DNA from: a phage
Reading direction: 5' to 3' (one strand)
DNA: 64,000 bases
Assembly (NCBI GenBank): GCA_036253495.1
Contig: GCA_036253495.1_4125.1
The position numbers were made by a program, and so were the translations under genes. Of this stretch, positions 40,398-63,759 are shown piece by piece; position 1 is the stretch's first letter; each line of letters begins with the position of its first letter. The notes below the pieces were generated by a model that was given only the letters and a program-made list of their open reading frames with translations, searched no databases and was not told where the DNA came from.

Positions 40398-40595
40398 ATG
40401 CGTATTTTAACACAAGAAGAGCATCACGAAAGACTTATCAATAACATGGCTATGATAATGTATAAGTCTCATAAACGTGGTAATGCCTATAAACGTGAAT
40501 TAGTTATGGAACTATTCTTAGGAACTAACTTACAAAATGAATATGTTAAACTATATGTAAAAGAGTTATGTTTAGAGATAAATGGTAAACTATGA
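40398..40595 (+). CDS. small protein, family B (LGTNYQ-motif)
   Basis: first array member; promoter TTGACT/TATTAT and SD AAGGGAG upstream; FLGTNLQNEYV. Confidence 0.65.
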   Translation: MRILTQEEHHERLINNMAMIMYKSHKRGNAYKRELVMELFLGTNLQNEYVKLYVKELCLEINGKL

Positions 40596-40792
40596 AAATG
40601 CGTACATTAACTCAAGATGAATATCATCATATACTACGTAAAAACACGGCAAGAATTTACCAAAGCAATGTGCACTTAGAAAGAGTTGAGTTGTACCTGT
40701 TGATTACGATGGGAACAAACTATCAGGAAGTGTGGATAACTCACTATTTGGAATCTTTGAAAGCTGACATACGAGCTAGGAGAAAACTATGA
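40592..40792 (+). CDS. small protein, family B
   Basis: MKMRTLTQDEY...MGTNYQEVWI; ATGA overlap. Confidence 0.65.
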   Translation: MKMRTLTQDEYHHILRKNTARIYQSNVHLERVELYLLITMGTNYQEVWITHYLESLKADIRARRKL

Positions 40793-40989
40793 AAATGCGT
40801 ACATTAACCGAAAAAGAATATCAAGCTCTACTACGTAAAAACATGGTAAGGATTTACCAAAGCGATGTGCACTTAGAAAGAGTTGAGTTGTACCTTTTGA
40901 TTACAATGGGAACCAACTATCAGGAAGCATTGATATCGAAATATTTGGAATCTTTGAAAGCTGACATACGAGCGAGGTGCAAACATTGA
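40789..40989 (+). CDS. small protein, family B
   Basis: MKMRTLTEKEY...MGTNYQEALI; near-duplicate of previous. Confidence 0.65.
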   Translation: MKMRTLTEKEYQALLRKNMVRIYQSDVHLERVELYLLITMGTNYQEALISKYLESLKADIRARCKH

Positions 40990-41195
40990 AAATCATAACA
41001 CAGACACAAGCATTTGGTCGTATATTGAAATACCTTGATGACATGATAGATATACATAGTGACCTCCCTAAAACTGTAATCGACGCCAAAAGAGCAGAAT
41101 ATCGCATGATGGCTGTACTGAACACAAACTTTCAGGAAGAGTATGTCAATGATTGGATTGGATTTTTAATTGAAGATATAAAGAGTAAACTATGA
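40977..41195 (+). CDS. small protein, family B (divergent)
   Basis: non-ATG start (GTG at 40977 or TTG near 40986); LNTNFQEEYV. Confidence 0.5.
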   Translation: MQTLKIITQTQAFGRILKYLDDMIDIHSDLPKTVIDAKRAEYRMMAVLNTNFQEEYVNDWIGFLIEDIKSKL

Positions 41196-41404
41196 TTATA
41201 TTAACACCAGAGCAATATAGGAAACGTTACAATTCTAAGCAGATTGAAATCTTGCTGATATATGCAGACAGGGATGATGTATACTTATCAAAAGTTATGG
41301 AAAAAGAATTACTTATGGGTGTCTTCTTAGGAACTGACCACCAGAAATCTTATGTCCAAGAGTATCTAATAGCTCTTGAGAAATACATCAGGAGTAAACT
41401 ATGA
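41192..41404 (+). CDS. small protein, family B
   Basis: FLGTDHQKSYV; ATGA overlap. Confidence 0.6.
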   Translation: MIILTPEQYRKRYNSKQIEILLIYADRDDVYLSKVMEKELLMGVFLGTDHQKSYVQEYLIALEKYIRSKL

Positions 41405-41625
41405 ACTGCATTAATAACTTTGAATACGAGGCTCGCTCAAGGTGTGCATCTCAAAAAGAGAACCACATTTACTTCACTATGATGTACTTATCTTGGAATG
41501 AAATTGAAGAAATGGTTGCTGAAGTATGGCTGTTTGAATTCATGGGGACGCAGTATCAGAATAGGTTTGTGGGTGAGTATCTTAATGTTCTTATGAAACA
41601 TATAGAAAGAAAGGGAATGAACTAA
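41401..41625 (+). CDS. small protein, family B
   Basis: FMGTQYQNRFV; ATGA overlap. Confidence 0.6.
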   Translation: MNCINNFEYEARSRCASQKENHIYFTMMYLSWNEIEEMVAEVWLFEFMGTQYQNRFVGEYLNVLMKHIERKGMN

Positions 41626-41876
41626 TGAAAGTATTATCAAGCACTGAGTATCAATCTGCCCTATTCTCTTTACTAAACACCCTTCGCAAGAACAATGAAC
41701 TTTATCCTTCCCCTGAGAATGATGTAGTTAATGGTGACGTGTTTCTACTTAAATTCGTTGGAACTAATAAACAAGATATCTTCACTGATCGTTATATCAA
41801 TGCACTAAGAAACCTTGTAGCGTATAAAACCCGCCAGGCCAAAAGAGAATGGAAGAGACAATGCGATCCAGAATAA
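41625..41876 (+). CDS. small protein, family B
   Basis: FVGTNKQDIFT; start overlaps upstream stop. Confidence 0.6.
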   Translation: MKVLSSTEYQSALFSLLNTLRKNNELYPSPENDVVNGDVFLLKFVGTNKQDIFTDRYINALRNLVAYKTRQAKREWKRQCDPE

Positions 41877-44957: not shown

Positions 44958-45299
44958 ATGAAAACTAATATTCAACTTAAGGTTTATAAATCATTTGCAA
45001 GTACATATATCAAATGCAGTCTATGTAAAGATGTAATGGACTACAAAGGTAAGCCATTCACGATTACTTACGATTCTACAAGAGGTTTTTATATATCTTT
45101 TGCTGATTACAAATATAACATGTACGAACACATTGACATTGAAGATTTAAGTACTTTATCTGAAGAAGAATACTTTCAAGAATCATTAGTATGGGATTTA
45201 GAGTTTCCTATGCCATTGGTACATAAGATGATAGTACTAATAAAAGAAACTAAACAGGAGCCTAATAGTGCTTATGAAGAACACATTATTGAGTACTGA
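44958..45299 (+). CDS. small protein, family C (EEYFQxS-motif) inside family B array
   Basis: SEEEYFQESLVWD. Confidence 0.65.
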   Translation: MKTNIQLKVYKSFASTYIKCSLCKDVMDYKGKPFTITYDSTRGFYISFADYKYNMYEHIDIEDLSTLSEEEYFQESLVWDLEFPMPLVHKMIVLIKETKQEPNSAYEEHIIEY

Positions 45300-45302
45300 A
45301 CC

Positions 45303-45533
45303 ATGAAAAGATTATCATTCGAAGAGTACTGCAAGCTTATTAATACTTTACAACCACAAATAAAACAAATAAATTCTCTTCCTATATCCCAAGAAGAACG
45401 TGCAGTACTGAAAGATGAGTTAATTTTAAAATGCACAGTAGGTACTAACTATCAAGCTGATAGTGTTCGTTATCTAATTTGGGGTTTAATGTGCATAATA
45501 GAGAACAAAGCAGTTGACAGTACTCTAATGTAG
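45303..45533 (+). CDS. small protein, family B
   Basis: TVGTNYQADSV. Confidence 0.6.
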   Translation: MKRLSFEEYCKLINTLQPQIKQINSLPISQEERAVLKDELILKCTVGTNYQADSVRYLIWGLMCIIENKAVDSTLM

Positions 45534-45542
45534 TGCTATAGT
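45514..45542 (+). promoter_or_regulatory. internal promoter
   Basis: TTGACA-17-TATAGT. Confidence 0.45.
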
Positions 45543-45582
45543 GTCAGTACTTTTTCGAGCGTTAAAATATAGGGTACAGATT

Positions 45583-45828
45583 ATGTTAAAATTTTTAAAT
45601 TTCCTTATCGTCTTGTGTATTGTTCTTGGGATTGCACCGTTTGTATTAGCGTATCTGGATTCAGATGAAATGCACAAGATGAATTGCACAAAGACAGGAC
45701 AGAGTAGAAAAGAGACGGTTATGATGCCCGTAACGGTTATTGTGAATAACATGCCGATTACAAACATGGTCCCTACCCTAACGACAACGTACCAGTACTC
45801 TTGTGATGACGGAGAGAGGTGGAGATAA
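45583..45828 (+). CDS. small membrane protein
   Basis: MLKFLNFLIVLCIVLGIAPFVLAYL TM segment; promoter TTGACA/TATAGT upstream; track start 45541. Confidence 0.5.
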   Translation: MLKFLNFLIVLCIVLGIAPFVLAYLDSDEMHKMNCTKTGQSRKETVMMPVTVIVNNMPITNMVPTLTTTYQYSCDDGERWR

Positions 45829-45835
45829 TGCGATA

Positions 45836-46162
45836 ATGCGTAAGATCAATTGTATAAAAAGAGCGAATACATGTTTCATTGCGTTGACCAATGTACCGGG
45901 TGGGTCTGGTGTTAAGATATTTGAGTACAATAAAGTTGATAATTGTTTCTATTGGGTAGAAGGTATCAAATCATATGAAAATACGATAGCAGTACCGAAT
46001 CTAGTTGATATCTCTGAAGAAGAAGAGTTTCAGTACATGTTAGTACACGATGATTCTTTTGGGTTGACATACAAAGAGATGAAGGAAGTACAAAGGCAGA
46101 TGATATCATGTATGAATATTTCTAAGCATTTCCTTCAAAATATTCATCCAATTTACGTATAA
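45836..46162 (+). CDS. small protein, family C
   Basis: SEEEEFQYMLVHDD; start uncertain (track 45803). Confidence 0.55.
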   Translation: MRKINCIKRANTCFIALTNVPGGSGVKIFEYNKVDNCFYWVEGIKSYENTIAVPNLVDISEEEEFQYMLVHDDSFGLTYKEMKEVQRQMISCMNISKHFLQNIHPIYV

Positions 46163-46171
46163 GAGATTAAT

Positions 46172-46507
46172 ATGAAATTCAACATTCATAGAATTAATTC
46201 CGGTTGTATATTTGCTTATACGCATGAGAATTACAAGAAGTACATGAATCATGAAGTACATTATGTTTTTGAGGACGGTAAAGAATATTTTGCTTATTTG
46301 AGTCCCAGGAGTTTAGGTAAGTACGAGTTGCTTCAGGATCTTTCTCTTATGCAGGAAGATGAATTATTTCAGTACAGTCTAATTCATGACCCTTATATGT
46401 TTGATATAGATATTATGTGCAGTTTACAGAAGAGGATGAAAGAAGTTTGGGATTCGATTAAAAGAGGTGATTGTATAGAATATGATAGTATACAAGAAGA
46501 TGCCTAA
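46172..46507 (+). CDS. small protein, family C
   Basis: QEDELFQYSLIHDP. Confidence 0.65.
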   Translation: MKFNIHRINSGCIFAYTHENYKKYMNHEVHYVFEDGKEYFAYLSPRSLGKYELLQDLSLMQEDELFQYSLIHDPYMFDIDIMCSLQKRMKEVWDSIKRGDCIEYDSIQEDA

Positions 46508-46700
46508 CGGATATGAATTGAAGTACAGACATTTTATTCGAAATGTAGATTCAGATCCTTTTAATGTTAAAATGGCAGAGTTCGATTTATTATTTTATCT
46601 AGGAACGAGAGCACAGCCACAATTCGTTGATGCATACATAAGGGCTTTACGAACAGAGATAGTATGCACACCAAAGGAGTCTAAATGTACAAAAATGTAA
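46482..46700 (+). CDS. small protein, family B-like inside family C array
   Basis: FYLGTRAQPQFVDAYIRAL. Confidence 0.55.
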   Translation: MIVYKKMPNGYELKYRHFIRNVDSDPFNVKMAEFDLLFYLGTRAQPQFVDAYIRALRTEIVCTPKESKCTKM

Positions 46701-46942
46701 ACCATCATTTGTACGCATCAAAGTACAGGGATTTTTGTTTACAAGGGGGCGATGAAGATTTTGCTTTGCGATTATCGGAATTTAATATGTTATTTTATCT
46801 TGGTACATCAGTACAAGAAGAAATGGTACAGAAATTTATCAAGCACCTTGAACGAAAAATTCATACGCAAATTTTGGTTGTTAAGTTACAGAATGAGATA
46901 AATGAATACAATGCAGAATCTAACAATAGTACAGGATCTTAG
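46685..46942 (+). CDS. small protein, family B-like inside family C array
   Basis: FYLGTSVQEEMVQKFIKHL. Confidence 0.55.
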   Translation: MYKNVNHHLYASKYRDFCLQGGDEDFALRLSEFNMLFYLGTSVQEEMVQKFIKHLERKIHTQILVVKLQNEINEYNAESNNSTGS

Positions 46943-47303
46943 ACCAGTAATAATGATGTTAAATGCAAGACGAGATTTATGGCACGAAATGCATAACAAG
47001 AAGGATTCATTTGCACAAATCAATTTAGTCTTTCAGGAGTTAATCCAGAGTGCATTGGATGTTATTGAACCAAAATACAAAGATGGTATATTCTGTGTAA
47101 AGAATGCAGTTCGTCCTCATGCAATTCCAAGGAAAATTAAGTTAGCTAGATTAACATTTGACGAGAGGGATTTCTTCAGTTATAATCCCAGTACAGCTTT
47201 ATATTTTATTCCTGATTCAGACAAATATCATCCTATCCATTACGGATGGATTATGTCTTATATAGTAAATGAAACGGAATACCCTATTAAATGGGAAAGA
47301 TGA
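46902..47303 (+). CDS. hypothetical protein
   Basis: 133 aa; start overlaps upstream gene; no family motif. Confidence 0.5.
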   Translation: MNTMQNLTIVQDLRPVIMMLNARRDLWHEMHNKKDSFAQINLVFQELIQSALDVIEPKYKDGIFCVKNAVRPHAIPRKIKLARLTFDERDFFSYNPSTALYFIPDSDKYHPIHYGWIMSYIVNETEYPIKWER

Positions 47304-47479
47304 TGATAGATGTTAAGACATTAAATGCATTACAGGATTCATTATTAGATAGTATTAAGCTGTATTACAATATGCATTTGAGGGGTGGTATCAATGATTA
47401 CAATTATTATTTGAGTGTAATTATATTTGAGCATCTTTCAGTACAGGATAGAATTTTACACAAGTACAAACATTATTGA
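47291..47479 (+). CDS. small hypothetical protein
   Basis: 62 aa; coupled. Confidence 0.45.
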   Translation: MGKMMIDVKTLNALQDSLLDSIKLYYNMHLRGGINDYNYYLSVIIFEHLSVQDRILHKYKHY

Positions 47480-47850
47480 GGAAACAAAATATGTTCAATA
47501 AAATCATGTTCATTTTAACATTTGTGTTTTTATCATTCACAAACACCGCTCATGCAGTACATGCAGAACAGGCATCATCGGATGTACCGTTATATGAAAC
47601 ATACAAATTTGATTGCAGATTGCAGAATAATGAAATAATCAATATCTTTTTACACAATACAGAAGTACCTTATTTGCAGATTGAAGCAACGAAGTACATG
47701 TATTATGGTACGAATTCGGTACAGGAATTTTTATTCAAACACACCAATCAGGATGTAATTATATCATTGCAGTACGTTGATAGTTCATTGTCTTTAATGC
47801 ATTTCAAGAATGCAGAGGGATTAGTTACAGTGCTCAAATGCTATAGGTAA
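47476..47850 (+). CDS. small secreted protein (signal peptide)
   Basis: MFNKIMFILTFVFLSFTNTAHA signal-like N-terminus; ATGA overlap. Confidence 0.55.
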   Translation: MRKQNMFNKIMFILTFVFLSFTNTAHAVHAEQASSDVPLYETYKFDCRLQNNEIINIFLHNTEVPYLQIEATKYMYYGTNSVQEFLFKHTNQDVIISLQYVDSSLSLMHFKNAEGLVTVLKCYR

Positions 47851-47856: not shown

Positions 47857-48372
47857 ATGAATGAAATTGAATTATTAACGCACAAGATTAGTACAATAAT
47901 GCTTATGCTCAAAAATAATCATCCTATACATAAGTACATTGATATAGATGAATTACGCATAGAAGATAGGCATGGTAAATTATCGTTTATGTTTCACAAT
48001 GCAAATAATGCAGGGAATGTTAACGTTTGTATTGCAGCATTTACCCAAGCCAATCCAGTACAAACATCTCCTGTTGTATACGAAAATAAAGAAGGGTATT
48101 TGTGGGTAAACACAAACGATTATTTCTTTTATGATTTGAAACAAGATGATGAAGTAGAAGAACGAATTGATTTAATTGATATTAGTACAGATTGTAGTGC
48201 TGAATTATTTCAGAAATCGTTATTATATAGTCCTCGTCAAATGCATTATCTAAAGTTATTCAGTTCATTGTACGCGAATCCTTTAATTAAGGGTTTTAAA
48301 TTTTATATAAAAGTTCCTGACATTCAAGCAGTTTATGATATTTTGATGCAAGGATATAGTTATGAAGTATAG
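47857..48372 (+). CDS. small protein, family C
   Basis: SAELFQKSLLYSP. Confidence 0.65.
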   Translation: MNEIELLTHKISTIMLMLKNNHPIHKYIDIDELRIEDRHGKLSFMFHNANNAGNVNVCIAAFTQANPVQTSPVVYENKEGYLWVNTNDYFFYDLKQDDEVEERIDLIDISTDCSAELFQKSLLYSPRQMHYLKLFSSLYANPLIKGFKFYIKVPDIQAVYDILMQGYSYEV

Positions 48373-48670
48373 AATGCTCTATACAAAAGATATGATTTAT
48401 GTTGAATTAGAAGGCGATGAAGACGGTTGGAATTTGATTTATTCATGTAGTTCAGGTTGGTACATGGCACATTTAAATGATAACGAAGTCACAGATTATT
48501 TTGTAGATTTCAATACATTATCCGACGAAGAATTGTTTCAACAGCAATTAGTGATTGACACAGGTGGATATGATGTGTTATTATTAAAAAAGATACAGAA
48601 AGCTGTTATGAATTTTAATGCCCAGGTATCCGAATGGGAAAGGAAATATTATGACCTCGAAGTACAATAA
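48362..48670 (+). CDS. small protein, family C
   Basis: SDEELFQQQLVIDT. Confidence 0.6.
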   Translation: MKYRMLYTKDMIYVELEGDEDGWNLIYSCSSGWYMAHLNDNEVTDYFVDFNTLSDEELFQQQLVIDTGGYDVLLLKKIQKAVMNFNAQVSEWERKYYDLEVQ

Positions 48671-49019
48671 TACATTTGATATCAATAAGTTAACAGAATG
48701 GTTTTATAATATTGAAATTGAAGCTATTCCGTATCATAAGTACGAACAAAGTGATTTGCGTAGTATAGATATTCGTGAGTTGTATGCATATTATCAGAGT
48801 GCATTAGAGATGCATAAGATATTTTTGAGTACAGAATACATGACACGTTGTAAGGATGCGTTTGATGAATTCAAGAAGAATGATAATTTAGTACAGAAAT
48901 ATGTAATAGCAAAGTACATGTACCTTCAGGGAATTACAAGTACAGTGGAATTCAATACAGTTCTTGCTTTAGTTGAGATTATTTTATTATGCAAAAATGT
49001 AAAGTGGAATTTAGTTTAG
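48651..49019 (+). CDS. hypothetical protein
   Basis: from MTSKYNNTF with SD AAGGAAA; track start 48618. Confidence 0.5.
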   Translation: MTSKYNNTFDINKLTEWFYNIEIEAIPYHKYEQSDLRSIDIRELYAYYQSALEMHKIFLSTEYMTRCKDAFDEFKKNDNLVQKYVIAKYMYLQGITSTVEFNTVLALVEIILLCKNVKWNLV

Positions 49020-49486
49020 AGAGTGCTGTACAGTACGTTAAGTACATTGAAGGTGTATACAATATAATGAAAGCATATGAAGGAAAAGGATATGCTTCAA
49101 TAAATCACAAATATGATTATATTAACAATCAGTTAGAAGAATCAAATTCAGGTAAAGTGCTTTTTAGTTTTTTATATTTTGCTCCTGACAATGTATATCC
49201 TGATGAAAATGATCTTCGTCTGGAAAGAGATGACCTTTGGTATATGTATCCAGGACGTGATAAGCCAATGGATGATGCTTTGTTGGAAATCAAATACAGT
49301 ACAGAACCTTTGACACCGGAGTTGTGGTTCCAGTACAGTACAATACATGAAGAAATTGATATCTTTTTCTACGCAATATATAAGATGCTTTATGAGAATG
49401 GTGTGCTTAAGAATCATGTATATTTTTATTTCCAGCAAATGAAAAATGTATATGAGTCCTTTTACCCAACCGAGCCTGTATCGTAA
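48989..49486 (+). CDS. small protein, family C
   Basis: TPELWFQYSTIHEE; start overlaps upstream. Confidence 0.6.
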   Translation: MQKCKVEFSLESAVQYVKYIEGVYNIMKAYEGKGYASINHKYDYINNQLEESNSGKVLFSFLYFAPDNVYPDENDLRLERDDLWYMYPGRDKPMDDALLEIKYSTEPLTPELWFQYSTIHEEIDIFFYAIYKMLYENGVLKNHVYFYFQQMKNVYESFYPTEPVS

Positions 49487-49512
49487 GATATGGGCTTTTT
49501 TACGTTTTGGTA

Positions 49513-49541
49513 TTGACACAGTACAGAATCGGTGCTAACAT
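49513..49541 (+). promoter_or_regulatory. possible internal promoter
   Basis: TTGACA-17-TAACAT (weak -10). Confidence 0.35.
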
Positions 49542-49568
49542 ACCTGAACCATTTTTAAGGAGAACCCA

Positions 49569-53790: not shown

Positions 53791-53791
53791 A

Positions 53792-54235: not shown

Positions 54236-54690
54236 TGTCGTTACAAAGTGCATTGAAAGAAGCAAAGAAGATTCATGAGTACATGATTAAGGTCAAAGGT
54301 GGAGAAATTCCAGGTATCTTCAAAATGTCAGAGACAGAATATTGCACGAAGAATATTGAGGATTTTGATGGTTCTGATACATTAGTACTGCAATGTGATG
54401 ATTATGATCATGATAATTGTGGTTATAACCCTTTGTACTACTTTATCAATTACTACCCAGGGTCAGATATAACCGTATACAACCCTGATTATTATGGTAA
54501 AGATTTGACAATTCCGTTTTCAGTACTGGATGGTCCGTGGGATAGTGAAGAGTATTACTTTCAGCAAAGTACTGTATATACTGAACATGAACTCGATACT
54601 CTGGTCATTATGTGGTACTTTAAAAGTATAGATTCAACATGTTTCTATATGGATTATGAATACATAGAGACACAGAAATATAAGAGGTAA
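54235..54690 (+). CDS. small protein, family C
   Basis: MSLQSALKEAKKIHEY...SEEYYFQQSTVYTE. Confidence 0.7.
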   Translation: MSLQSALKEAKKIHEYMIKVKGGEIPGIFKMSETEYCTKNIEDFDGSDTLVLQCDDYDHDNCGYNPLYYFINYYPGSDITVYNPDYYGKDLTIPFSVLDGPWDSEEYYFQQSTVYTEHELDTLVIMWYFKSIDSTCFYMDYEYIETQKYKR

Positions 54691-54695
54691 TTGTA

Positions 54696-55142
54696 ATGTT
54701 TTTTTATTATTATGAAGTAAATGATAAGTTGGTTCAGGATATTGTACAAATAATCAAGTACTTCAATGATAATCCTAACGTATTGGGTAGTGAGCTTGAA
54801 TACGAGAAAGGTGGGTGTGTATATTTTACTTTCTGTGGTGGGTGCTCGGAAGAGCAATCATTTTTCAATTCTTATTCAAATTACATCTCCTATAATGCAC
54901 TTGCAGACGAGTTGATTGTGGTACGTGACAGTAGTGATGACCGTACAGTGTATACCAGAGAGACAATACAAAGTGTAGGTAATGAAGAAGGATACTTTCA
55001 ATTGAGTACAGTACTTAATCATGAAGAACTACATGTATTACGTTTGTTTTATCTTATTAGTACTATGAACTTGAAGCACGATCAGGTATACATTGATTTA
55101 GATTACTTTGAGTACTTACGTAAGATTAGTTCTAAAAAATAA
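54696..55142 (+). CDS. small protein, family C
   Basis: NEEGYFQLSTVLNH. Confidence 0.65.
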   Translation: MFFYYYEVNDKLVQDIVQIIKYFNDNPNVLGSELEYEKGGCVYFTFCGGCSEEQSFFNSYSNYISYNALADELIVVRDSSDDRTVYTRETIQSVGNEEGYFQLSTVLNHEELHVLRLFYLISTMNLKHDQVYIDLDYFEYLRKISSKK

Positions 55143-55152
55143 GTTCATGCTA

Positions 55153-55180
55153 TTGACAAGAGCCTGTACTGTGTTACAAT
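55153..55180 (+). promoter_or_regulatory. internal promoter
   Basis: TTGACA-16-TACAAT. Confidence 0.5.
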
Positions 55181-55214
55181 GCACAGTAATATTAATTCAA
55201 AAGGTGCACATTAA

Positions 55215-55748
55215 ATGATTATTGATGCTTACAATGCTGAGGAAATGCAGGAATTATCTCGTAAAATCAACATTATAGTTCCTTTGCTTAAGGATTGCAG
55301 TACTGGTTTGATTCCATCACGAGACATTATTAAAGAAGGATACTACCTACAGGCAGTCTATAAGGGTGGTACATTTCATCGTTGTCGTGTATTACGTGAT
55401 GGCCTTCCTGCACTTACACTCATTGGTATTGGTATTGCCTTATGCGGTACGAACCGTTTGTACTTGAATGAAAAAAATCAAATCATGAATTTGTTTTATA
55501 CAGGAAAAAGTACTGAATTATATTTTGGTATTCAGAACTGGTGGGATACAGTAAAGAGTAGTACTATTGAAATCCCAAAATACAATTACAACGCATTTGA
55601 AGAGCAGATGTTTCAATTGTCATGTACAGATGACATGTACATGATTCTACGTCTATATATGGAGATGCAAATGAACTTCAGAAGTAATTTATACATTGAT
55701 ACTTCAACATTTGAATTCGAAGATGTATTCGTTGATGGTATACTATGA
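55215..55748 (+). CDS. small protein, family C (divergent)
   Basis: FEEQMFQLSCTDD; promoter TTGACA/TACAAT upstream. Confidence 0.6.
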   Translation: MIIDAYNAEEMQELSRKINIIVPLLKDCSTGLIPSRDIIKEGYYLQAVYKGGTFHRCRVLRDGLPALTLIGIGIALCGTNRLYLNEKNQIMNLFYTGKSTELYFGIQNWWDTVKSSTIEIPKYNYNAFEEQMFQLSCTDDMYMILRLYMEMQMNFRSNLYIDTSTFEFEDVFVDGIL

Positions 55749-55972
55749 AGTATATTCCAAAACACCAGTACTACAGGATGTGTTCTGACATTTACACAAA
55801 ATGGAATACATTTCATCCCCTTTTGAAGAAGAGGCGTCCATATCATGATTACAAGTTGAATCATTTTCTTGGAACTAATTATCAAGAGGTTGTGATGAAA
55901 GATTACATTTTTAACCTTCAGAAATTAATTCAGAATAAAGTTCAAGGAAAGGGGGAGTCACCGTGGGTATAA
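55745..55972 (+). CDS. small protein, family B-like inside family C array
   Basis: HFLGTNYQEVVMKDYIFNL. Confidence 0.55.
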   Translation: MKYIPKHQYYRMCSDIYTKWNTFHPLLKKRRPYHDYKLNHFLGTNYQEVVMKDYIFNLQKLIQNKVQGKGESPWV

Positions 55973-56169
55973 GACACAGAGACATGCAAGATATTCTTAA
56001 CCAATACAGTGCTCAAATGTTCACTGCAATCAGGTCTTCCAATCAAAATGACGTGTCGGAATTACAGTTACTGATGTACATAGGGACACAATACCAGGAG
56101 GCTTCAGTTGAGACGTATATTAAGTACCTATTGGGTATTATAAGGATGAAAAATGGACAATACTTTTGA
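55963..56169 (+). CDS. small protein, family B-like inside family C array
   Basis: MYIGTQYQEASVETYIKYL. Confidence 0.55.
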   Translation: MGIRHRDMQDILNQYSAQMFTAIRSSNQNDVSELQLLMYIGTQYQEASVETYIKYLLGIIRMKNGQYF

Positions 56170-56389
56170 ACAAGCACCAGCATCGGATTTTAGTTATGGG
56201 TTTATTATAGATATATTTTCTGGTACTGAAGAATCGGATATACCTCTCTATATCTTTGCTAATATGCGTTATATTTTTCGTATTGCAGAGGACAGTGACA
56301 AATCTGATATGTCTTTTATGATTAAAAAAATTATATACCTATCGTGCTATGAATATATGAATAAAATGAGCGAACACTATGACCTATGA
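56153..56389 (+). CDS. small hypothetical protein
   Basis: 78 aa; coupled. Confidence 0.45.
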   Translation: MDNTFEQAPASDFSYGFIIDIFSGTEESDIPLYIFANMRYIFRIAEDSDKSDMSFMIKKIIYLSCYEYMNKMSEHYDL

Positions 56390-56927
56390 TGAGATAATTT
56401 CTTTTGCAAATAAGTTAAGTACACTAACCAAATTGACGGAAGTAGTACTGCAAGATGAGCGTATACTTTCTAGGAGTGAGCTAATTGTTTCACAACACGA
56501 TTACATGACGTATATGTCTTTCAGATCGTCAGGCCGAACAATTATTAAGTTCGGTTCTGTTCCTGAAACAAATGGAAAATTATCTATGTGCACCCATAAC
56601 AATGGGGAATTGTATGGATTAGTGTACAGAAAAGATTCGACAGTACTGAATACTTTTAATGCAGGTGCGAGTGCAGTTGATGTTACATCATTAAGCGATG
56701 TTGACAAACACATAGATTTACCACACCTTGAAATTAATGAAGAAAGTGTTTTTCAGTTAAGTACAGTGTACAATGATATTGAAGTGTTTGGTATTTCTTT
56801 GTGGAATATCCTTCGTTTAAGGGATGATGCTCCTGTATTTGTATATGCAAATTATGAAGACATTGATACTTGTATTGATGAAATGGAGAAATACATTGAT
56901 CAATTTAAACAAAACTTCCACATTTGA
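56379..56927 (+). CDS. small protein, family C
   Basis: NEESVFQLSTVYND. Confidence 0.65.
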   Translation: MTYDEIISFANKLSTLTKLTEVVLQDERILSRSELIVSQHDYMTYMSFRSSGRTIIKFGSVPETNGKLSMCTHNNGELYGLVYRKDSTVLNTFNAGASAVDVTSLSDVDKHIDLPHLEINEESVFQLSTVYNDIEVFGISLWNILRLRDDAPVFVYANYEDIDTCIDEMEKYIDQFKQNFHI

Positions 56928-57474
56928 TATTCACGAGAAAGCTAAGCTACTCATCAGTACTGCTGAATATTATTACGATACAGTACTGAGTCAATCACCT
57001 TCTACATTTCGTGATTTAGTTAAATCATTTAATAAAACACAAAAAGAATGTGAGCTTTCATATAATGGTGTGAACTTTATGTATATTAAACCATATATGT
57101 CAAAGCGTGATTTGATTAAATGCAATGATGATTTCAAGATTGATCGTGATTTAAATCGTTTCTTCTACGATGTAAGAAGCAATCTGTATCAACTTACATT
57201 AAATTCCAGTACTTCTTTCATTATTGGATTGGGTAAGAATTTAGGCACAGGTACTTCATTTTATAATAAAGGTGCAGTACAAGATGTGGATCTCAATCCA
57301 AGTACTGATGTTGCATTCCAACAGGATTTGATTATGAATGTGGATTCAGCATCAGTATACAGTTCTAATGTTCTGTGTAAGGAATTTCAGAATTCCAAAA
57401 TTCTTGAGTTATTGTACATTGCGGATTGCAATATACTGTACAAATTTTGTACTCATCTGAAGGAGATTTTATGA
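56824..57474 (+). CDS. hypothetical protein, family C-like (start uncertain)
   Basis: TDVAFQQDLIMNVD; track start overlaps upstream gene by ~100 nt, true start probably internal. Confidence 0.5.
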   Translation: MMLLYLYMQIMKTLILVLMKWRNTLINLNKTSTFDIHEKAKLLISTAEYYYDTVLSQSPSTFRDLVKSFNKTQKECELSYNGVNFMYIKPYMSKRDLIKCNDDFKIDRDLNRFFYDVRSNLYQLTLNSSTSFIIGLGKNLGTGTSFYNKGAVQDVDLNPSTDVAFQQDLIMNVDSASVYSSNVLCKEFQNSKILELLYIADCNILYKFCTHLKEIL

Positions 57475-57839
57475 AAAAAGAAATTAGAATCCAATTCGGT
57501 ATGAGGAAAAAAGAGGTCATTTGTACACTGAATCATGAGGTCGTGGAAAGGTTTGATGCATTACAAAAATTCTCCCATTTTGTTCTTGTACTATATGAAA
57601 ATGGGTCTTTTAAAATCTTCACATATGATGATTCAAAAAATTATCGTAATGATTTTGTAAATCTTACAGTACTGTCAGAAGAGGAATTCTTTCAGGAAAG
57701 TACAGTTTGGGATTTACCAGGAGCACCAATTGAATACGTCCGTGCTACACAGGTAGAGATGATCAAAGCAATGCAGAACTATCCAGAAGATCATATGACT
57801 AAGTTTCCTGAATCTATTCATGTAGAGGTTGAGTACTGA
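57471..57839 (+). CDS. small protein, family C
   Basis: from MKKEIRIQFG with SD AAGGAG; SEEEFFQESTVWD; track start 57426 rejected. Confidence 0.65.
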   Translation: MKKEIRIQFGMRKKEVICTLNHEVVERFDALQKFSHFVLVLYENGSFKIFTYDDSKNYRNDFVNLTVLSEEEFFQESTVWDLPGAPIEYVRATQVEMIKAMQNYPEDHMTKFPESIHVEVEY

Positions 57840-58177
57840 TGGATTTAGTAAAAGTTACTATAGCCAAACATCAGTACTATGTAATGATTGAGTTAGGTTA
57901 TAACCACAAGAAAGAACATTTTTATTATCTTACATATGAAAAGAATATGTTCAAGATAATCACTAATAATTTAGCACGAGATGTATATCATATTTTTGAT
58001 TACAGTGATTATAGTGAAGAAGAGTTATTTCAGGAATCATTAGTATGGGAGTACAATAGAATTGTAGATATTGAAAAGTTAATTAAGTATCAACAACTAA
58101 TGAAAGATATAATGAATAACTATCCATGTAAACTACAAAGAGAACTGGAATTTATTGTCCAATACAAAGAGGTTTAA
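57839..58177 (+). CDS. small protein, family C
   Basis: SEEELFQESLVWEY. Confidence 0.65.
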   Translation: MDLVKVTIAKHQYYVMIELGYNHKKEHFYYLTYEKNMFKIITNNLARDVYHIFDYSDYSEEELFQESLVWEYNRIVDIEKLIKYQQLMKDIMNNYPCKLQRELEFIVQYKEV

Positions 58178-58179
58178 TT

Positions 58180-58716
58180 ATGTTAGATTATGACAGAATA
58201 GAGAAAGATGATTGGGACGGTACTCACCATTTAAAGGTTGACACTTTTGAACACGCTCGCAGTACTGCTCAAGATCTTATGCAAATCCATGAGTTCATTT
58301 GTAATAACAGAGAGACTTCTATTTGGACAAAATCTGACAGATTTATTGATTCAAGTTATGATTACTTCAGTATTCGTTCAAATCATCTAGATGATGACGG
58401 GTACAGTGTTGATATGTTCAATATCAACAAATTTAATGACCCTGAATATGATCCAAAATACAGCGGTGGATTTTTAAGTTATTCCCCTAACTATGACAGA
58501 ATAAAGTTCTTTTACGTAGATACTGACATTGTTCTTCCATTTATCGAAGAAGAACTTACAGAAGAACTGTTCTTTCAGATGAGTACTGTTGACGACCCGT
58601 ACATAGTTGGTGTACAATTCATGTTCTCTTGGCTTAAACAGAATAACTTCCCTCCTTTTTATGTTGACCTTACTTTTTACGATCTAATTTGGAATTTTGT
58701 TCGTAATCCATCTTGA
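58180..58716 (+). CDS. small protein, family C
   Basis: TEELFFQMSTVDDP. Confidence 0.65.
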   Translation: MLDYDRIEKDDWDGTHHLKVDTFEHARSTAQDLMQIHEFICNNRETSIWTKSDRFIDSSYDYFSIRSNHLDDDGYSVDMFNINKFNDPEYDPKYSGGFLSYSPNYDRIKFFYVDTDIVLPFIEEELTEELFFQMSTVDDPYIVGVQFMFSWLKQNNFPPFYVDLTFYDLIWNFVRNPS

Positions 58717-58741
58717 CACCTCCTTCTGTGCATGATATAAT
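58713..58741 (+). promoter_or_regulatory. internal promoter
   Basis: TTGACA-17-TATAAT. Confidence 0.55.
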
Positions 58742-58772
58742 CTTTTTCATCTAATACGAAAAGGATCATATC

Positions 58773-59279
58773 ATGCAATTCAATCCTGAACTCTCATACA
58801 GTAATGCTATAACTTTTGCAGACAATTTAATTCGCATTCATAACTTTTTAAGAGATGTTGAAACTAATTTTGACGTTACATATGTGGACCCCAAAAGTGG
58901 TGAAATGTTTACCGATACAGTACAGGTATCCAGTATCCTGTCATTTCGTATGCATATGTTATACAGCAAAGTTGAAGCACATAATAATGTCAGAATTCTT
59001 GGTTCGTCATTCTTTGGATTCAATGCGAAAGCGAAAGGTACTCTTCGTTTTTATAAAGAATTTTTGGAGTACGAAGATATAGAATATATAGATCTCATTG
59101 ATATCAATGATGAGTGTGAATACTTTCAGTACTGCACAATCTATTCAGAAGATGTGGTTTTTGCATTAACTGCAATATCTGAATTGCATAAAAAATTACC
59201 ACCAGATGCCCAATTTTACTTTGACCTTAGTGATTATGATATCATGTTGGATCATATTAATCGTGTAGGAGAATTGTAA
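58773..59279 (+). CDS. small protein, family C
   Basis: DECEYFQYCTIYSE; promoter TTGACA/TATAAT upstream. Confidence 0.65.
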   Translation: MQFNPELSYSNAITFADNLIRIHNFLRDVETNFDVTYVDPKSGEMFTDTVQVSSILSFRMHMLYSKVEAHNNVRILGSSFFGFNAKAKGTLRFYKEFLEYEDIEYIDLIDINDECEYFQYCTIYSEDVVFALTAISELHKKLPPDAQFYFDLSDYDIMLDHINRVGEL

Positions 59280-59782
59280 TGCCTGATATTAGTAAACTTA
59301 ATTACGATGAGATTGAACAGTACGCAAAAGATATCTACGAAATCTATGATGAATTCAAGAACAATACTACAGCATTTGGTTCAATGTATTCTCGAAAAAA
59401 GAGTCTTAACAGGGATAGGAAAAGTTGTTTAACATATACACAGAAATCGGGCGAAATGATGGAAATCTTCTGTGAATCATTTGATGATAGTGAATATAGT
59501 GTAGGCATGAATTACCTATCTTACTCAAAAAAAGGTGAAGTTGTAGTAGATTTACGTCTTGAAAATGGTCGTAATAGAAAGAGTAGTATCAATGAAGAAG
59601 ATGTAAAACTAATTTCTGAAGAAGATTACTTTCAGTTAAGTACTACTATGAATATGTTGGTATTGAGTGTCATAACACTCTACGGTTTCCTTCGATATAA
59701 GCATGAAATTGAAACTGACTTCTATTTTGATTTGAATGATTTTGAAGTATGCAAGGGATATCTAAATGGGAAAAGTAGTTGA
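59279..59782 (+). CDS. small protein, family C
   Basis: SEEDYFQLSTTMN. Confidence 0.65.
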   Translation: MPDISKLNYDEIEQYAKDIYEIYDEFKNNTTAFGSMYSRKKSLNRDRKSCLTYTQKSGEMMEIFCESFDDSEYSVGMNYLSYSKKGEVVVDLRLENGRNRKSSINEEDVKLISEEDYFQLSTTMNMLVLSVITLYGFLRYKHEIETDFYFDLNDFEVCKGYLNGKSS

Positions 59783-60104
59783 TATTGAGTACATGCACGA
59801 TGGTGATGAAATTTTCATTGTCCAAAAAGAATGCAAGGCTGGACATTGGGTTATCTTCTCTGTAGAAGAGGATGAATCCATTGTATCTTTTATTTCTACT
59901 AAACACAAAGATACGAATTTAGAACTTCTTTACAATTTAAGTGAAGAAGAACTATTTCAAATGAGCACTGCATTTGAATATGATGTATACGAATTATTAG
60001 ATGTACAGAATATTTTGTTGGAGTCTCTTCAGAAACTAAAACACAAAGATTTATTTCTGGTTAAATCATTTATGATGCACAAATATACACTTGAGGTGGA
60101 TTAA
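59766..60104 (+). CDS. small protein, family C
   Basis: SEEELFQMSTAFEYD. Confidence 0.6.
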   Translation: MGKVVDIEYMHDGDEIFIVQKECKAGHWVIFSVEEDESIVSFISTKHKDTNLELLYNLSEEELFQMSTAFEYDVYELLDVQNILLESLQKLKHKDLFLVKSFMMHKYTLEVD

Positions 60105-60535
60105 TGTATTTTGAAATTATAAAAGTTAAATCAAAGGCGTTACTTAATACAAGATTTCAAACGTATGGTTGCACTCATAGTGTAATGCTGGATGATAATA
60201 ACGAATTGTATTATTCTAAAGTAACACAACCAGTACCGGAGAATAAATTCTATATCTATTCTCACAAAGATAACTCACAATATGACATTGAGAATCTCGC
60301 TGTAATGCCACCTGACGAGCTATTTCAGTACAGCTTAGTATGTCCTTACCGTGGTGATATTGACCTTCTCAAGAAGATTCAGGAGGGTTTAATGGACTTT
60401 GTGCCTAAGTCTAGCCCTGAATATTTTTCAACTAATGTAGAGTTTTTAAAGATCGAAAGAGAAATTCCTGATTATATGCTTAGTGATGATGAGTTCTACG
60501 ATAAGCATTTCCCAGGAAAAAAATGGAGAGATTAA
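60104..60535 (+). CDS. small protein, family C
   Basis: PPDELFQYSLVCPY. Confidence 0.65.
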   Translation: MYFEIIKVKSKALLNTRFQTYGCTHSVMLDDNNELYYSKVTQPVPENKFYIYSHKDNSQYDIENLAVMPPDELFQYSLVCPYRGDIDLLKKIQEGLMDFVPKSSPEYFSTNVEFLKIEREIPDYMLSDDEFYDKHFPGKKWRD

Positions 60536-61005
60536 TGACATTCCAGGAAGATATTGATTTTGCAAAAAAGATTTACAAAATTCATCTTATAATGGAAAGT
60601 ACTGAGTTCCAAAAGCGTTCATATGTCGATAAGATTAAAAGCTGTGATAAAAGTTCATTTGTCATAAAACTACCAACATTCAAATCCAAAAGAGAGGCCA
60701 TCTACGCTACGATTTATGATGATTCAGAATACAATCTAATGGATTTGTACATGACCTTTACCCCAGGGAATACACTTGTATGTTACTTCCAATGGGAGGA
60801 AGAGACAATTGTACTTGATAATATAAGTTCTTATAAGCCCACTGAAGAGACGCACTTTCAGTTATCTTTGATCTATACAGAAGAAACGGTTCGTGCTATA
60901 ATGTTGTATTCATATCTCAATAGTGTAAATGCCAGTGCTTTCTATCTGGATTTAGTACATCTTGAACTTATTGAGGAATTACTTGCAGAGGAACTTTCTC
61001 TATGA
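60523..61005 (+). CDS. small protein, family C
   Basis: TEETHFQLSLIYTE. Confidence 0.6.
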   Translation: MERLMTFQEDIDFAKKIYKIHLIMESTEFQKRSYVDKIKSCDKSSFVIKLPTFKSKREAIYATIYDDSEYNLMDLYMTFTPGNTLVCYFQWEEETIVLDNISSYKPTEETHFQLSLIYTEETVRAIMLYSYLNSVNASAFYLDLVHLELIEELLAEELSL

Positions 61006-61472
61006 TAGAATCCGACGAGTTAGTACTGGATGGTCACGTTATCCGATACGATTCATTTGCGGCGTGTATTGATTTTGCAAAGATTTTGATGAAGATTTAT
61101 CATGCTGGTAATAATGGTAAATTTGACAAAGTGTTTGAAAAATCATTTACTCATAATGCATGGTATTACGCTGGTACTGAAGTTTTAAACATAGGGGAAT
61201 CAGTGTGTGATAATGAATCATTCATGAGCTTTGATTACTATTATATTCAGTACCATTCATACCTTGATAAAATTTGTGTTCATGACAGTGATTTTAAAGT
61301 ATTACCTTCATATATTGAAATATGTAATGAAGAGATGTACTTTCAAAACTCATTATTATATACAAGTAATATACTTTTACTATCTGTGATTGTAACATAC
61401 TTAAGAAGCGAAGGACTTAATTCCTTTTATATTGATTTGGATTTCTTTAATACATTTTTGGAACATTTATAA
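61002..61472 (+). CDS. small protein, family C
   Basis: NEEMYFQNSLLYTS. Confidence 0.65.
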   Translation: MIESDELVLDGHVIRYDSFAACIDFAKILMKIYHAGNNGKFDKVFEKSFTHNAWYYAGTEVLNIGESVCDNESFMSFDYYYIQYHSYLDKICVHDSDFKVLPSYIEICNEEMYFQNSLLYTSNILLLSVIVTYLRSEGLNSFYIDLDFFNTFLEHL

Positions 61473-61481
61473 AGGTGCTAT

Positions 61482-61988
61482 ATGTCGAGGAAACTATCAG
61501 AACTAATAAAGTTCGCAAAGGATTGTCTTGATACAATAACTTATTTGTACGTTAATGAAGTTAATTTGCATAGATATTTCGCTATCCATCACAGTACTGA
61601 ATCGTCTTTCAATATTCGTCACGGTGCTCATAGTATATATTTTCATACTAAAGCTGAAGATCGTCTGGCTCATTCTATGTTTGAGAAAGGTAAAACGGAC
61701 TATATTCTATTTCGTTCAGATGGTTCTGATATAAAATATATTTCACACCAAAGAGGAAAAGCCCAATTTATTAATCATATACTTCCGTACATTACGGATT
61801 TAACGGATGAAAATTATTTCCAAAATTCATTAATTTACAATGACTCTGAACTTAAAGCTATGTTTATTCTATCGTACTTTAAAAAATATAGTGAGTTTCA
61901 GAGAATTAGTTTTGAATTTGCTTCAATGAAGCACTTTATTAAACAGGTAAGGATTTTAAAAAATGCTGACAAACGAAACAATAGATAA
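61482..61988 (+). CDS. small protein, family C
   Basis: TDENYFQNSLIYND. Confidence 0.65.
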   Translation: MSRKLSELIKFAKDCLDTITYLYVNEVNLHRYFAIHHSTESSFNIRHGAHSIYFHTKAEDRLAHSMFEKGKTDYILFRSDGSDIKYISHQRGKAQFINHILPYITDLTDENYFQNSLIYNDSELKAMFILSYFKKYSEFQRISFEFASMKHFIKQVRILKNADKRNNR

Positions 61989-62574
61989 AATTAGTCAGAT
62001 AAGTTTAGAACTAATTCGTATTCATGAATTTGCATGGCGTCTAACAAATCGTGTTATTTCATTTCATACCAGTACTGACCAAAATTCTACATACAAATTT
62101 GACCGTGGTGACAAATGGTTTGATTTAATGGATGAAAATGATAAATGTATCATCTGCGTAAGAACTGAATTGACCGACCGCAACAGTGCAAGAGATTTAG
62201 ATATATATATGCCCAGTTCTTATATTTGTATCTCAAGAAGCGATGGTATTTTTATTAGTTCATCTGGACTTAATTATCTTAATAAAGTCTACATTGATAT
62301 GGATGAAGAAGAATACTATGTCACAACACATGAACCTGAATTTCTGGATATTCCAGATGATGATGTACTCGACGAAACATTGTTTCAGTACTCATTAATT
62401 CACAACGCCTGTGTTATTGATGCTATTAAATTTTGTAAAAATCTATCCCCTAAATTACCATTAACAAAGTATATCAAATTAGAACCTGAAATATTCAAAG
62501 AACAGGACTGGGATGGGTTATTACTTAAATTAAAAAGTATTACTGAAGAAAACATATGTACAATTGAGGATTAA
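61963..62574 (+). CDS. small protein, family C
   Basis: LDETLFQYSLIHNA; start overlaps upstream gene. Confidence 0.6.
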   Translation: MLTNETIDKISQISLELIRIHEFAWRLTNRVISFHTSTDQNSTYKFDRGDKWFDLMDENDKCIICVRTELTDRNSARDLDIYMPSSYICISRSDGIFISSSGLNYLNKVYIDMDEEEYYVTTHEPEFLDIPDDDVLDETLFQYSLIHNACVIDAIKFCKNLSPKLPLTKYIKLEPEIFKEQDWDGLLLKLKSITEENICTIED

Positions 62575-62578
62575 TTGA

Positions 62579-63211
62579 ATGAGTACAAAAAGAAAACCAA
62601 TTTCAAAGTACGTTTTTCATCGCCTAGAATATAAGCACTGCATTGCGTATGCACGAGCCTTAACGGACATATTACCACGTCTGAAAGATGATAAGTTCCT
62701 TGAATGTTATGACATGCGTTTTCATAACAATGTTCTTGAGTACATAGAATCAGATGATAGTGAGTTGAATGAAGTATGGCTTGATTTCAGTCCTAGTGGT
62801 TTAGATAAAAATAGAGTTGGGAACTTGGGTCTATTTTATACGCACTGCTTGAACTTCGATTTGTCAGATAAAACATTAGTACTGGATAGTAATGAGGTAC
62901 TTAGATTGAACCTCAATGTTATGGATTATTCAGAAGAATCATTCTTTCAAAATAGTTTAATATATGAACCGAATGATTTATTATATACTATTGTTTTCCC
63001 ATATCTACATGAGCACCTTAAAGGTACTACAGTTCAAAGAGCAGACATTACCTTTAGTTTAGTAAATTTATTCAAGTACAGTGACGTATTCAAAGAAATA
63101 TGTATTGAAGGCGGTTACTTCGATGACCTTGCTGATTTGAATAACATGGCGTTTGAAAATGATAATTATTTTAACGATACCTATATAGGCGGTTCAAGGA
63201 TAATGAAATGA
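62579..63211 (+). CDS. small protein, family C
   Basis: SEESFFQNSLIYEP. Confidence 0.65.
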   Translation: MSTKRKPISKYVFHRLEYKHCIAYARALTDILPRLKDDKFLECYDMRFHNNVLEYIESDDSELNEVWLDFSPSGLDKNRVGNLGLFYTHCLNFDLSDKTLVLDSNEVLRLNLNVMDYSEESFFQNSLIYEPNDLLYTIVFPYLHEHLKGTTVQRADITFSLVNLFKYSDVFKEICIEGGYFDDLADLNNMAFENDNYFNDTYIGGSRIMK

Positions 63212-63759
63212 GTTTACCATTAACAATAAACCCAGTACTAAAAGATCTATCTAAAGTTATTATGAACTTTTTTCCTATTGTACTACAAGATATAAAACCT
63301 ATATCAAATCTTGGTTCATGTTATATTCGACACAGTAATAATAAAAACGGTACTATAGGTACTTTGTACATTAGTGATAGTTCATTGTTTCTTTTGCACC
63401 CTGAGTTATCAGATGAAGAAATTGCAGATGGTTGTTCGGAGGCACAGAATCGTGTACTCACCCGTTATCCATATGTGTACATAAGCAGCATTAAACATAA
63501 AAATCTTGCTAATAACTTTTGCCAATGCAATCACGGTGATAACTTAATAGATTTAAATGTTGACGATGGGGTGCTTTTCCAGTACAGTACTCTATATGAT
63601 CAGTTAACAATGGATATCATTGAGTTGGATAAGTTAGTGCGTGATTACATCCCTGATGGTTTCTATCTTACAATGGATCTTAATGTACTGAATTCCGTAA
63701 TGGAACAAGGCACTCTACCAAACATTCTGAGAGACTTACGAGCATTTAAAAGACCCTGA
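63208..63759 (+). CDS. small protein, family C
   Basis: DDGVLFQYSTLYDQ; last array member, terminator follows. Confidence 0.65.
   Translation: MSLPLTINPVLKDLSKVIMNFFPIVLQDIKPISNLGSCYIRHSNNKNGTIGTLYISDSSLFLLHPELSDEEIADGCSEAQNRVLTRYPYVYISSIKHKNLANNFCQCNHGDNLIDLNVDDGVLFQYSTLYDQLTMDIIELDKLVRDYIPDGFYLTMDLNVLNSVMEQGTLPNILRDLRAFKRP

Follow-up and report, generated by a model that had tools for sequence, protein, structure and literature searches.

What are the roughly 60 small genes that follow one another in tandem over 23 kb of a jumbo phage genome, and what might they do for the phage? The question is raised by positions 40,398 to 63,759 of the window, the 64,000-nucleotide stretch of phage DNA analysed here (contig GCA_036253495.1_4125.1 of NCBI GenBank assembly GCA_036253495.1). 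Most genes of this interval belong to one of two families, designated B and C. They are best explained as two unrelated, lineage-expanded families of non-virion proteins, encoded just inside the left terminal repeat, whose products are probable early host-interaction proteins. Taken as a whole this explanation is held with slightly less than even confidence, whereas its descriptive and evolutionary part is held with high confidence.

Membership and layout of the arrays

The interval contains 66 open reading frames (ORFs) on the + strand (40359/40398-63759) and is essentially all coding; by comparison with the annotation of Escherichia phage A4, a close relative, the most likely start of the first gene is the ATG at 40398. 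Profile hidden Markov models (HMMs) were built iteratively from few seeds and searched against every ORF of at least 40 amino acids (aa) on either strand of the window, 344 in total. Family B was found to have 26 members (E 1e-17 to 4e-26), the next ORF scoring at E 0.19. Family C has 30 members (E ≤ 5e-14) and two divergent candidates that carry its motif, at 55215-55748 (E 0.0017) and at 56824-57474 (E 0.46, with the FQ motif). The other eight of the 66 ORFs fall outside both families. Among the 344, none of the antisense or off-frame ORFs matched the B or the C profile, and for this reason the families are regarded as no chance effect of composition. A preliminary description, made by a model from the DNA sequence and a list of its ORFs, had proposed two real families with about 60 tandem genes, and profile clustering with its clear gap in E-value bears this out. 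The objection that it had raised against itself, that the members might be unrelated and their motifs due to chance, fails on the same gap and on the zero off-frame matches. The interleaving that it had described is also real, with one lone C gene inside the B array and two B pairs inside the C array (Table 1); all three insertions are also present in A4 and in phage 121Q.

Family B

Members of family B are 66-96 aa in length and follow the pattern M-x-x-L-t-x-x-E-Y, then E-x-x-L-L-x-x-L-G-T-N-Y-Q-E-x-x-V-x-x-Y-I-x-x-L, in which G, T, Q and one L are each kept in 90% or more of 84 sequences. The AlphaFold2 model is a confident, all-helical fold of four helices (predicted local distance difference test, pLDDT, 91). 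The proteins vary in charge, with a median isoelectric point (pI) of 8.1. Three members matched phrog_4148 (E 1.7e-19, 1.4e-18 and 1.5e-11) over positions 1-72 of this 74-position profile. The named homologs belong either to jumbo phages of E. coli or to contigs of phage size (~350 kb) filed under E. coli, and among the sequences found the family appears to be restricted to Asteriusvirus-type phages.

Family C

Family C occurs in a short form of 102-143 aa, with ~70 residues before the motif, and in a long form of 147-216 aa, in which ~125 residues precede the motif, an additional N-terminal helix among them; in both forms ~46-50 residues follow the motif. The long-form model (pLDDT 89; predicted template modelling score, pTM, 0.85) is alpha/beta and is composed, in order, of the N-terminal helix, seven short strands, the short motif helix, a longer helix, a single strand and two helices at the C-terminus. 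The motif helix is predicted to be folded, with a pLDDT of 94-96. Of 150 representatives, 83% and 85% have the first and second E of the motif, 100% have F, 99% Q and 92% S, while conservation at most other positions stays below 50%; F and Q are invariant in 32 of 32 window members and present in 149 of the 150 representatives. C proteins are acidic (median pI 4.8, net charge ~-10). Seven members matched phrog_9317, phrog_12674, phrog_13866, phrog_34600, phrog_33775 or phrog_22855 along the whole length, with E-values from 7e-61 to 4e-5. Only 8-20 proteins were obtained when the gappy C alignment was used in a word-indexed homology search, and it was an exhaustive profile search of 1.84 billion representative proteins that showed the breadth of the family: 163 clusters, of which the best 150 are all stand-alone proteins of 55-249 aa. 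The fold matches obtained with Foldseek in BFVD were solely uncharacterised proteins of RaK2-like jumbo phages, namely 121Q, Klebsiella RaK2 (several), Cronobacter GAP32, Yersinia fHe-Yen9-03/04, Serratia BF and one Erwinia phage. The family is spread over RaK2-like jumbo phages of Escherichia, Salmonella, Klebsiella, Cronobacter, Yersinia, Serratia and Erwinia. The fixed C scaffold would consist of the nearly invariant E-E-x-aromatic-F-Q-x-S helix, the helices that follow it and the N-terminal helix; the beta region before the motif varies greatly in sequence and length.

Two labels in the A4 record touch on this region. A4_348, a C member of 178 aa (30699-31235 of the A4 stretch examined), is labelled 'DNA ligase'; its window ortholog has no NCBIfam match and no ligase-type Pfam match, and the label is therefore regarded as spurious. 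A4_379 (44766-46178 of the same stretch) is labelled 'methyl-accepting chemotaxis protein', which looks like an annotation error.

Relationship of the families to each other and to known domains

It had been suggested that the B core is distantly related to the C core. Profile-profile comparison gave an hhalign probability of 0.3%, and the predicted folds differ (all-helical versus alpha/beta); on these two grounds B and C as a single superfamily are ruled out. No significant match was obtained with Pfam (10 proteins; all 58 members), NCBIfam, PADLOC or PDB sequence profiles. Matches to DUF3213, deoxyhypusine synthase and the acetylcholine receptor were sub-threshold noise. No homology to known defence or anti-defence families was seen in Pfam, NCBIfam, PADLOC or PDB, a dedicated anti-defence library not being among the resources searched. 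Family C matched no counterpart of solved structure, and the PHROGs groups that match B and C are labelled 'unknown function'.

Source phage and terminal-repeat boundary

By megablast the window belongs to Asteriusvirus, a genus within the RaK2-like phages whose members are jumbo myoviruses infecting E. coli and Salmonella, with genome sizes of ~350 kb. The nearest record is that of Escherichia phage A4 (ON286972), with 96.5% identity across 79% of window positions 40398-52000; PBECO4, 121Q, phAPEC6 and ~30 more phages show 82-84% identity with about half of the same segment covered. The genome ends of the relative fEgEco12 were physically mapped, and its direct terminal repeat (DTR) is 20,993 bp long (PMC13070987). 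In the alignment, fEgEco12 position 54 corresponds to window position 18657 and the end of the DTR (20,993) to approximately window position 40,300. By this homology, window 18.6-40.3 kb would be the DTR-equivalent region, and the first B gene (ATG 40398) lies ~100 bp past its inner edge.

Short intergenic elements are repeated at ~10 positions of the DTR-equivalent region (~18604-40300). The window spans the physical genome end, and therefore the source assembly is circularised or has a collapsed repeat. Synonymous divergence from A4 is ~0.20 in the DTR-equivalent genes (20000-40200) and 0.035-0.05 in the arrays (40400-63759); from this inequality across the repeat boundary, the window phage and A4 appear to be mosaics with different histories on either side.

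Distribution across phages

A4 contains 25 B and at least 44 C genes, and 121Q contains 27 B and at least 39 C genes, in an architecture shared with the window. In A4, more divergent C-like genes run ~10 kb past the equivalent of the window end. In Erwinia phage pEa_SNUABM_47 (Eneladusvirus; 19650-25764 of the stretch examined) there is a compact block of 11 genes encoding proteins of 142-219 aa, eight of which carry E-E-x-x-F-Q-x-x-T. The order of small spaced genes, compact block, methyltransferase, cytidylyltransferase and RNA ligase is laid out as in the clade of the window phage, and no B genes are present at the syntenic site. This syntenic block indicates that C is ancestral to the clade and was greatly expanded in Asteriusvirus. 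The family would have ~8-11 copies in the Erwinia Eneladusvirus and more than 40 in Asteriusvirus, and thus be about five times smaller outside the latter. The occurrence of C without B in the Erwinia phage also argues against an obligatory pairing of the two families.

Duplication, divergence and selection

The paralogs are old, with median pairwise identities of 23% in B and 17% in C. Adjacent genes are more alike than in random order (p = 0.0004 for B, p = 0.018 for C), which is the expectation under tandem duplication. The preliminary description had listed several sets of near-identical recent duplicates, and the identities found do not agree with this. The closest pair, 40592/40789, has 79% protein and 86% DNA identity; 42517/42732 share 53% protein identity, 53308/54235 share 51% and 53308/53792 share 35%. 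A junction sequence said to be common to 53308, 53792 and 54235 is present in exact 27-nt copies at the first two (53295 and 53779), with no exact third copy.

Syntenic counterparts of the B genes in 121Q are 33-90% identical (~45-90% for most genes), and the best in-genome paralogs are 28-41% identical, save two closer pairs (53% and 80%). Since the syntenic identity usually exceeds that of the best in-genome paralog, most B duplications predate the divergence of the Asteriusvirus species. In family C, many positional counterparts in 121Q are just 23-40% identical, and gene 59279 is 96% identical in A4 against 26-30% in the other 32 matching phage records. Such low identities mark the C array as a hypervariable segment with deeply divergent, lineage-specific alleles.

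Nearly all array genes outside the patch 44522-46162 have 92-100% protein identity to A4, and all 56-58 members of the two families are intact ORFs. Comparison of the window with A4 gave ratios of nonsynonymous to synonymous substitution rates (dN/dS) of 0.54 in family B and 0.27 in family C; 37 control genes had a ratio of 0.22 and the non-family ORFs one of 0.16. Among paralogs the ratio is 0.2-0.5. These are pooled, site-averaged Nei-Gojobori values, with synonymous sites saturated for most paralog pairs. Selection on the orthologs is purifying. Diversification driven by positive selection is not seen overall, the pooled dN/dS of both orthologs and paralogs being below 1. Within the patch 44522-46162 the protein identity to A4 drops to 72-89%, and gene 44734 is closer to 121Q (79%) than to A4 (74%); the two observations together suggest a recombination tract from another lineage.

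Copy-number turnover

Copy number does turn over between isolates, as had been anticipated: A4, with 96-100% identity to the window along the array, has one B gene fewer (25 against 26) and two C genes more. The extra B gene of the window is 40789, and the extra C genes of A4 are A4_345 and A4_355. Gene 53792 of the window is chimeric: it begins like A4_355, with which it shares upstream sequence, the exact 27-nt junction and the first codons, and continues with the body of A4_356. Such a chimera is what unequal homologous recombination between neighbouring paralogs, at their conserved 5' ends, leaves behind. Gene 40592 is 97% identical to the single A4 copy, and 40789 is nearer to the single 121Q copy (68%, versus 57% for 40592). 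It looks as if 40592/40789 is not a simple recent duplicate and consists of two lineage alleles stacked in tandem. On this reading the arrays arose by tandem duplication, and copy number still shifts by unequal homologous recombination at the conserved 5' junctions of paralogs, with whole segments differing deeply between lineages.

Gene junctions and transcription

The same-strand, tightly packed arrangement reported earlier is evident at the 65 gene junctions: 48 overlap (13 of the ATGA type and 8 by a single base), 12 are gaps of at most 15 nt and five are larger gaps. The scarcity of internal promoters also stands. The four sites named in the preliminary description (45514, 49513, 55153 and 58713) match 10/12 to 12/12 positions of the sigma-70 consensus and carry an extended -10 TG, and a fifth array site with a sigma-70-like match is located at 40340. 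Such matches occur in four of the five gaps larger than 15 nt, plus the 3' end of gene 45303-45533. In the DTR-equivalent region, 39 intergenic gaps contain 40 sigma-70-like sites, and a large share of these are perfect TTGACA-N16-TATAAT. Overall, intergenic DNA has a 12-fold higher density of such sites than coding DNA, and five precede array blocks. With sites so sparse in the arrays and 40 in the DTR-equivalent region, the arrays look like a few long operons behind a promoter-saturated region. The DTR-adjacent position together with the sigma-70-like sites, which are pattern matches, suggests early transcription by the host polymerase. Host sigma-70 RNA polymerase would then read the arrays early in infection, in the form of a few long operons with translational coupling.

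Possible function and alternative explanations

The B and C proteins are tentatively proposed to be expressed early and to form a repertoire of cytoplasmic proteins that bind variable host targets, which is plausible and held with somewhat less confidence than the explanation as a whole. They would act in the cytoplasm, binding such targets for host takeover or counter-defence. A fixed scaffold with a hypervariable, indel-rich region in dozens of paralogs is the pattern of diversified binding-protein families. In the A4 record the array is followed downstream by genes for RNA ligase, polynucleotide kinase, DNA methyltransferases, and Sir2-like and Clp-like proteins. Several of these functions are classically linked to countering host defences. 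The virion proteome of phAPEC6 comprises 62 proteins identified by mass spectrometry (PMC7247149) and has no entry between gp347 and gp549, an interval that includes the C homolog gp442c, the single array gene that could be located in phAPEC6. A more specific version is considered unlikely, namely that C is a 'variable binder' scaffold of new fold with a hypervariable beta-sheet face, present in more than 40 paralogs per genome with divergent alleles exchanged between lineages, and that it neutralises polymorphic E. coli defence proteins or redirects them via a common partner docking at the FQ element. If true, it would amount to a combinatorial counter-defence repertoire, akin to the multigene families of large eukaryotic viruses.

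Several points weigh against the preferred explanation. The number of sigma-70-like sites in 39-59 kb is not above that of shuffled sequence, and the sites are called from consensus matches only. The DTR position was carried over from fEgEco12, a relative of 83-86% identity. Absence from the virion comes from one study of a related phage, in which small or low-abundance proteins can be missed. A diversifying arsenal might show overall positive selection, which was not seen in the pairwise, site-averaged dN/dS. The conserved C motif could be purely structural, acting as a helix cap with a core phenylalanine. What has been demonstrated is the membership, fold predictions, distribution, position, selection and breakpoint; the early timing and the binder or counter-defence role are inferences.

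Four other explanations were weighed. The arrays might be genome filler, that is, largely functionless tandem duplicates tolerated or favoured as a larger capsid needed filling, in line with the 'ratchet' idea of Hua et al. 2017 (PMC5646251). The extreme divergence of the paralogs (17-23% median identity) and the different copy numbers of close relatives would fit; however, every member is an intact ORF, dN/dS is similar to that of neighbouring genes, FQ is 99-100% conserved in the 150 representatives, the family occurs in phages of several host genera, C synteny is kept from the Escherichia phages to the Erwinia phage, and the embedded B pairs are kept in A4 and 121Q. Purifying selection and clade-wide conservation thus count against neutral filler, which is judged improbable. 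An adaptor role is judged just as improbable: here the C motif E-E-x-Y-F-Q-x-S would be a docking or processing site for a common partner, such as a phage or host protease or chaperone, the beta region would pick substrates, and B may itself be this partner or regulate it. The motif resembles a TEV-type site (E-x-x-Y-x-Q↓S/G), F and Q are invariant in otherwise hypervariable proteins, Clp-type and other proteases are annotated downstream of the array in A4, and the B/C interleaving is conserved in A4 and 121Q. Against it, the motif sits in a short helix of confident fold prediction rather than in an exposed linker, the serine takes position P2' instead of P1', and the Erwinia phage has C without B.

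Competition between phages is a third possibility, in which immunity-like or exclusion proteins would act against related phages or polymorphic toxins and not against host defences. The proteins are small, acidic and stand-alone, and their arrays, with lineage-specific replacement of alleles, resemble arrays of orphan immunity genes. This is nevertheless rated as very improbable, as a scan of array members, which took in four of the eight non-family ORFs, found no toxin genes or domains, B and C members showed neither membrane nor periplasmic signals, and there was no homology to Pfam immunity families. It is more doubtful still that B comprises small helix-turn-helix (HTH)-like DNA-binding regulators of neighbouring genes; the small helical proteins, weakly basic at the median and with G-T-x-x-Q at a helix start, invite this view, but the fold search gave it no support and neither an HTH fold nor an HTH profile was found. 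A repertoire of early host-interaction proteins is retained as the preferred reading.

Feature inventory

The features of the arrays and of the adjoining repeat are listed in Table 1.

Table 1. Coordinates of the arrays, their members and associated elements in the window
Feature	Position	Strand	Remarks
DTR-equivalent region (by homology)	18604..40300	+	small genes, each with own promoter; array starts at inner edge
Terminator-like hairpin	40202..40224	+	between DTR-equivalent region and array
Sigma-70-like promoter site	40340..40367	+	before first B gene; TTGACT-N16-TATTAT
B array, 21 consecutive genes, 66-96 aa	40398..44955	+	HMM E 1e-18 to 4e-26; LGTxxQ core; phrog_4148
C short-form gene, 113 aa, inside B array	44958..45299	+	HMM E 5e-21; motif LSEEEYFQESLV
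B gene	45303..45533	+	HMM; promoter-like site 45514-45542 overlaps 3' end
Non-family ORF	45541..45828	+	hydrophobic N-terminal segment, probably membrane-spanning; 99% identity to A4, 94% to 121Q
Two C short-form genes	45803..46507	+	HMM
B pair within C region	46482..46942	+	HMM E ~1e-17; pair present in A4 and 121Q
Three non-family ORFs	46902..47850	+	outside both HMM families
Non-family ORF	47476..47850	+	signal-peptide-like N-terminus (MRKQNMFNKIMFILTFVFLSFTNTAHA); one of the three in 46902..47850
C block, 6 long-form and 1 short-form genes	47857..51897	+	HMM; includes non-family ORF 48618-49019
Terminator-like hairpin	49472-49497	+	in C block 47857..51897
Promoter-like site	49513-49541	+	in C block 47857..51897
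C block, 2 short-form and 4 long-form genes and divergent candidate 55215-55748	52098..55748	+	HMM
Non-family ORFs	52466-52810, 53136-53306	+	in C block 52098..55748
Exact 27-nt junction repeat, copy 1	53295..53321	+	start of gene 53308
Exact 27-nt junction repeat, copy 2	53779..53805	+	start of gene 53792; breakpoint of one-gene difference from A4
Promoter-like site	55153-55180	+	in C block 52098..55748
Second B pair within C array	55745..56169	+	E 2e-21, 2e-18; syntenic pair in A4 and 121Q
Non-family ORF, 78 aa	56153..56389	+	outside both HMM families
C block, 9 long-form and 4 short-form genes and divergent candidate 56824-57474	56379..63759	+	HMM; array runs beyond window end
Promoter-like site, perfect consensus	58713-58741	+	in C block 56379..63759

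Other tandem families are present in the window. On the - strand, 1408-14463 encodes nine tandem paralogs of 370-1007 aa that are 24-79% identical, the largest with an RCC1-like domain; this third tandem family resembles entries for a ~41-kDa 'DNA condensation protein' detected in phAPEC6 virions. On the + strand, 14754-18360 contains tandem clusters of small proteins with 7, 4 and 2 members (59-102 aa, 27-58% identical), located just upstream of the equivalent of the left genome end; two members have no Pfam match.

Comparison with known systems and significance

Large eukaryotic viruses carry comparable multigene families, such as MGF110, MGF360 and MGF505 of African swine fever virus and the terminal host-range families and 'genomic accordions' of poxviruses. 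Like B and C, these are tandem, diverged, non-structural paralogs near the genome ends whose copy number varies among isolates via unequal recombination, and they are linked to host range and immune evasion. Their function has experimental support, whereas that of B and C is proposed by inference, and the viruses and folds are unrelated. Phage takeover modules located in or near long terminal repeats include the T5 pre-early genes, the SPO1 host-takeover module and the T4 early genes. These share with B and C small co-oriented, in B and C probably non-virion, genes near a physical genome end, and they have strong sigma-70-type promoters, to which the candidate sites in front of the array blocks may correspond; they consist mostly of unique genes with their own promoters, which corresponds to the DTR-equivalent region (18.6-40.3 kb), whereas the B/C arrays are paralogous and look like long operons. 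In Bacillus phage G, a lineage-specific expansion of a zinc ribbon reaches ~35 copies (Iyer et al. 2021, PMC7824862). Phage G, too, is a jumbo phage in which a single small domain, its role unknown, has multiplied into dozens of tandem copies; this domain is a recognisable zinc ribbon, probably nucleic-acid binding, whereas B and C have no recognisable domain and the C fold is unknown.

The array of 121Q mentioned by Hua et al. 2017 (PMC5646251), together with phrog_4148 for B and the six PHROGs groups for C, very likely represents the same genes as those of the window. That mention is a single sentence in which the families are undefined and the 121Q array meant is not specified; Wagemans et al. 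(2020) repeat the remark for phAPEC6. In PHROGs, C is split into many unrelated-looking groups, whereas here it forms one family. Beyond the line of Hua et al., the papers that could be searched contain no description of the families, the motif, the fold, the distribution, the DTR-adjacent position or the turnover, and no transcriptome of an Asteriusvirus or RaK2-like phage was found among them. Relative to this searchable literature, the separation into two folds, the FQ motif, the clade distribution, the position at the DTR boundary and the breakpoint would be new. Lineage-specific tandem expansion in a giant virus is a known phenomenon; B and C themselves, and especially the C fold and motif, are uncharacterised.

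Together the two families occupy ~23 kb of the window and, judged by A4, ~33 kb (~9%) of a 355-kb genome, with ~70 genes annotated as 'hypothetical protein'. With the families, the motif, the DTR-boundary location and the mode of turnover defined, this anonymous block becomes a testable system. It can now be asked which paralogs matter on which hosts, what binds the FQ element, and whether tandem amplification serves as an adaptive strategy, as in poxviruses and African swine fever virus. Asteriusvirus-type phages are under development for therapy, and their host range may depend on the B/C repertoire.

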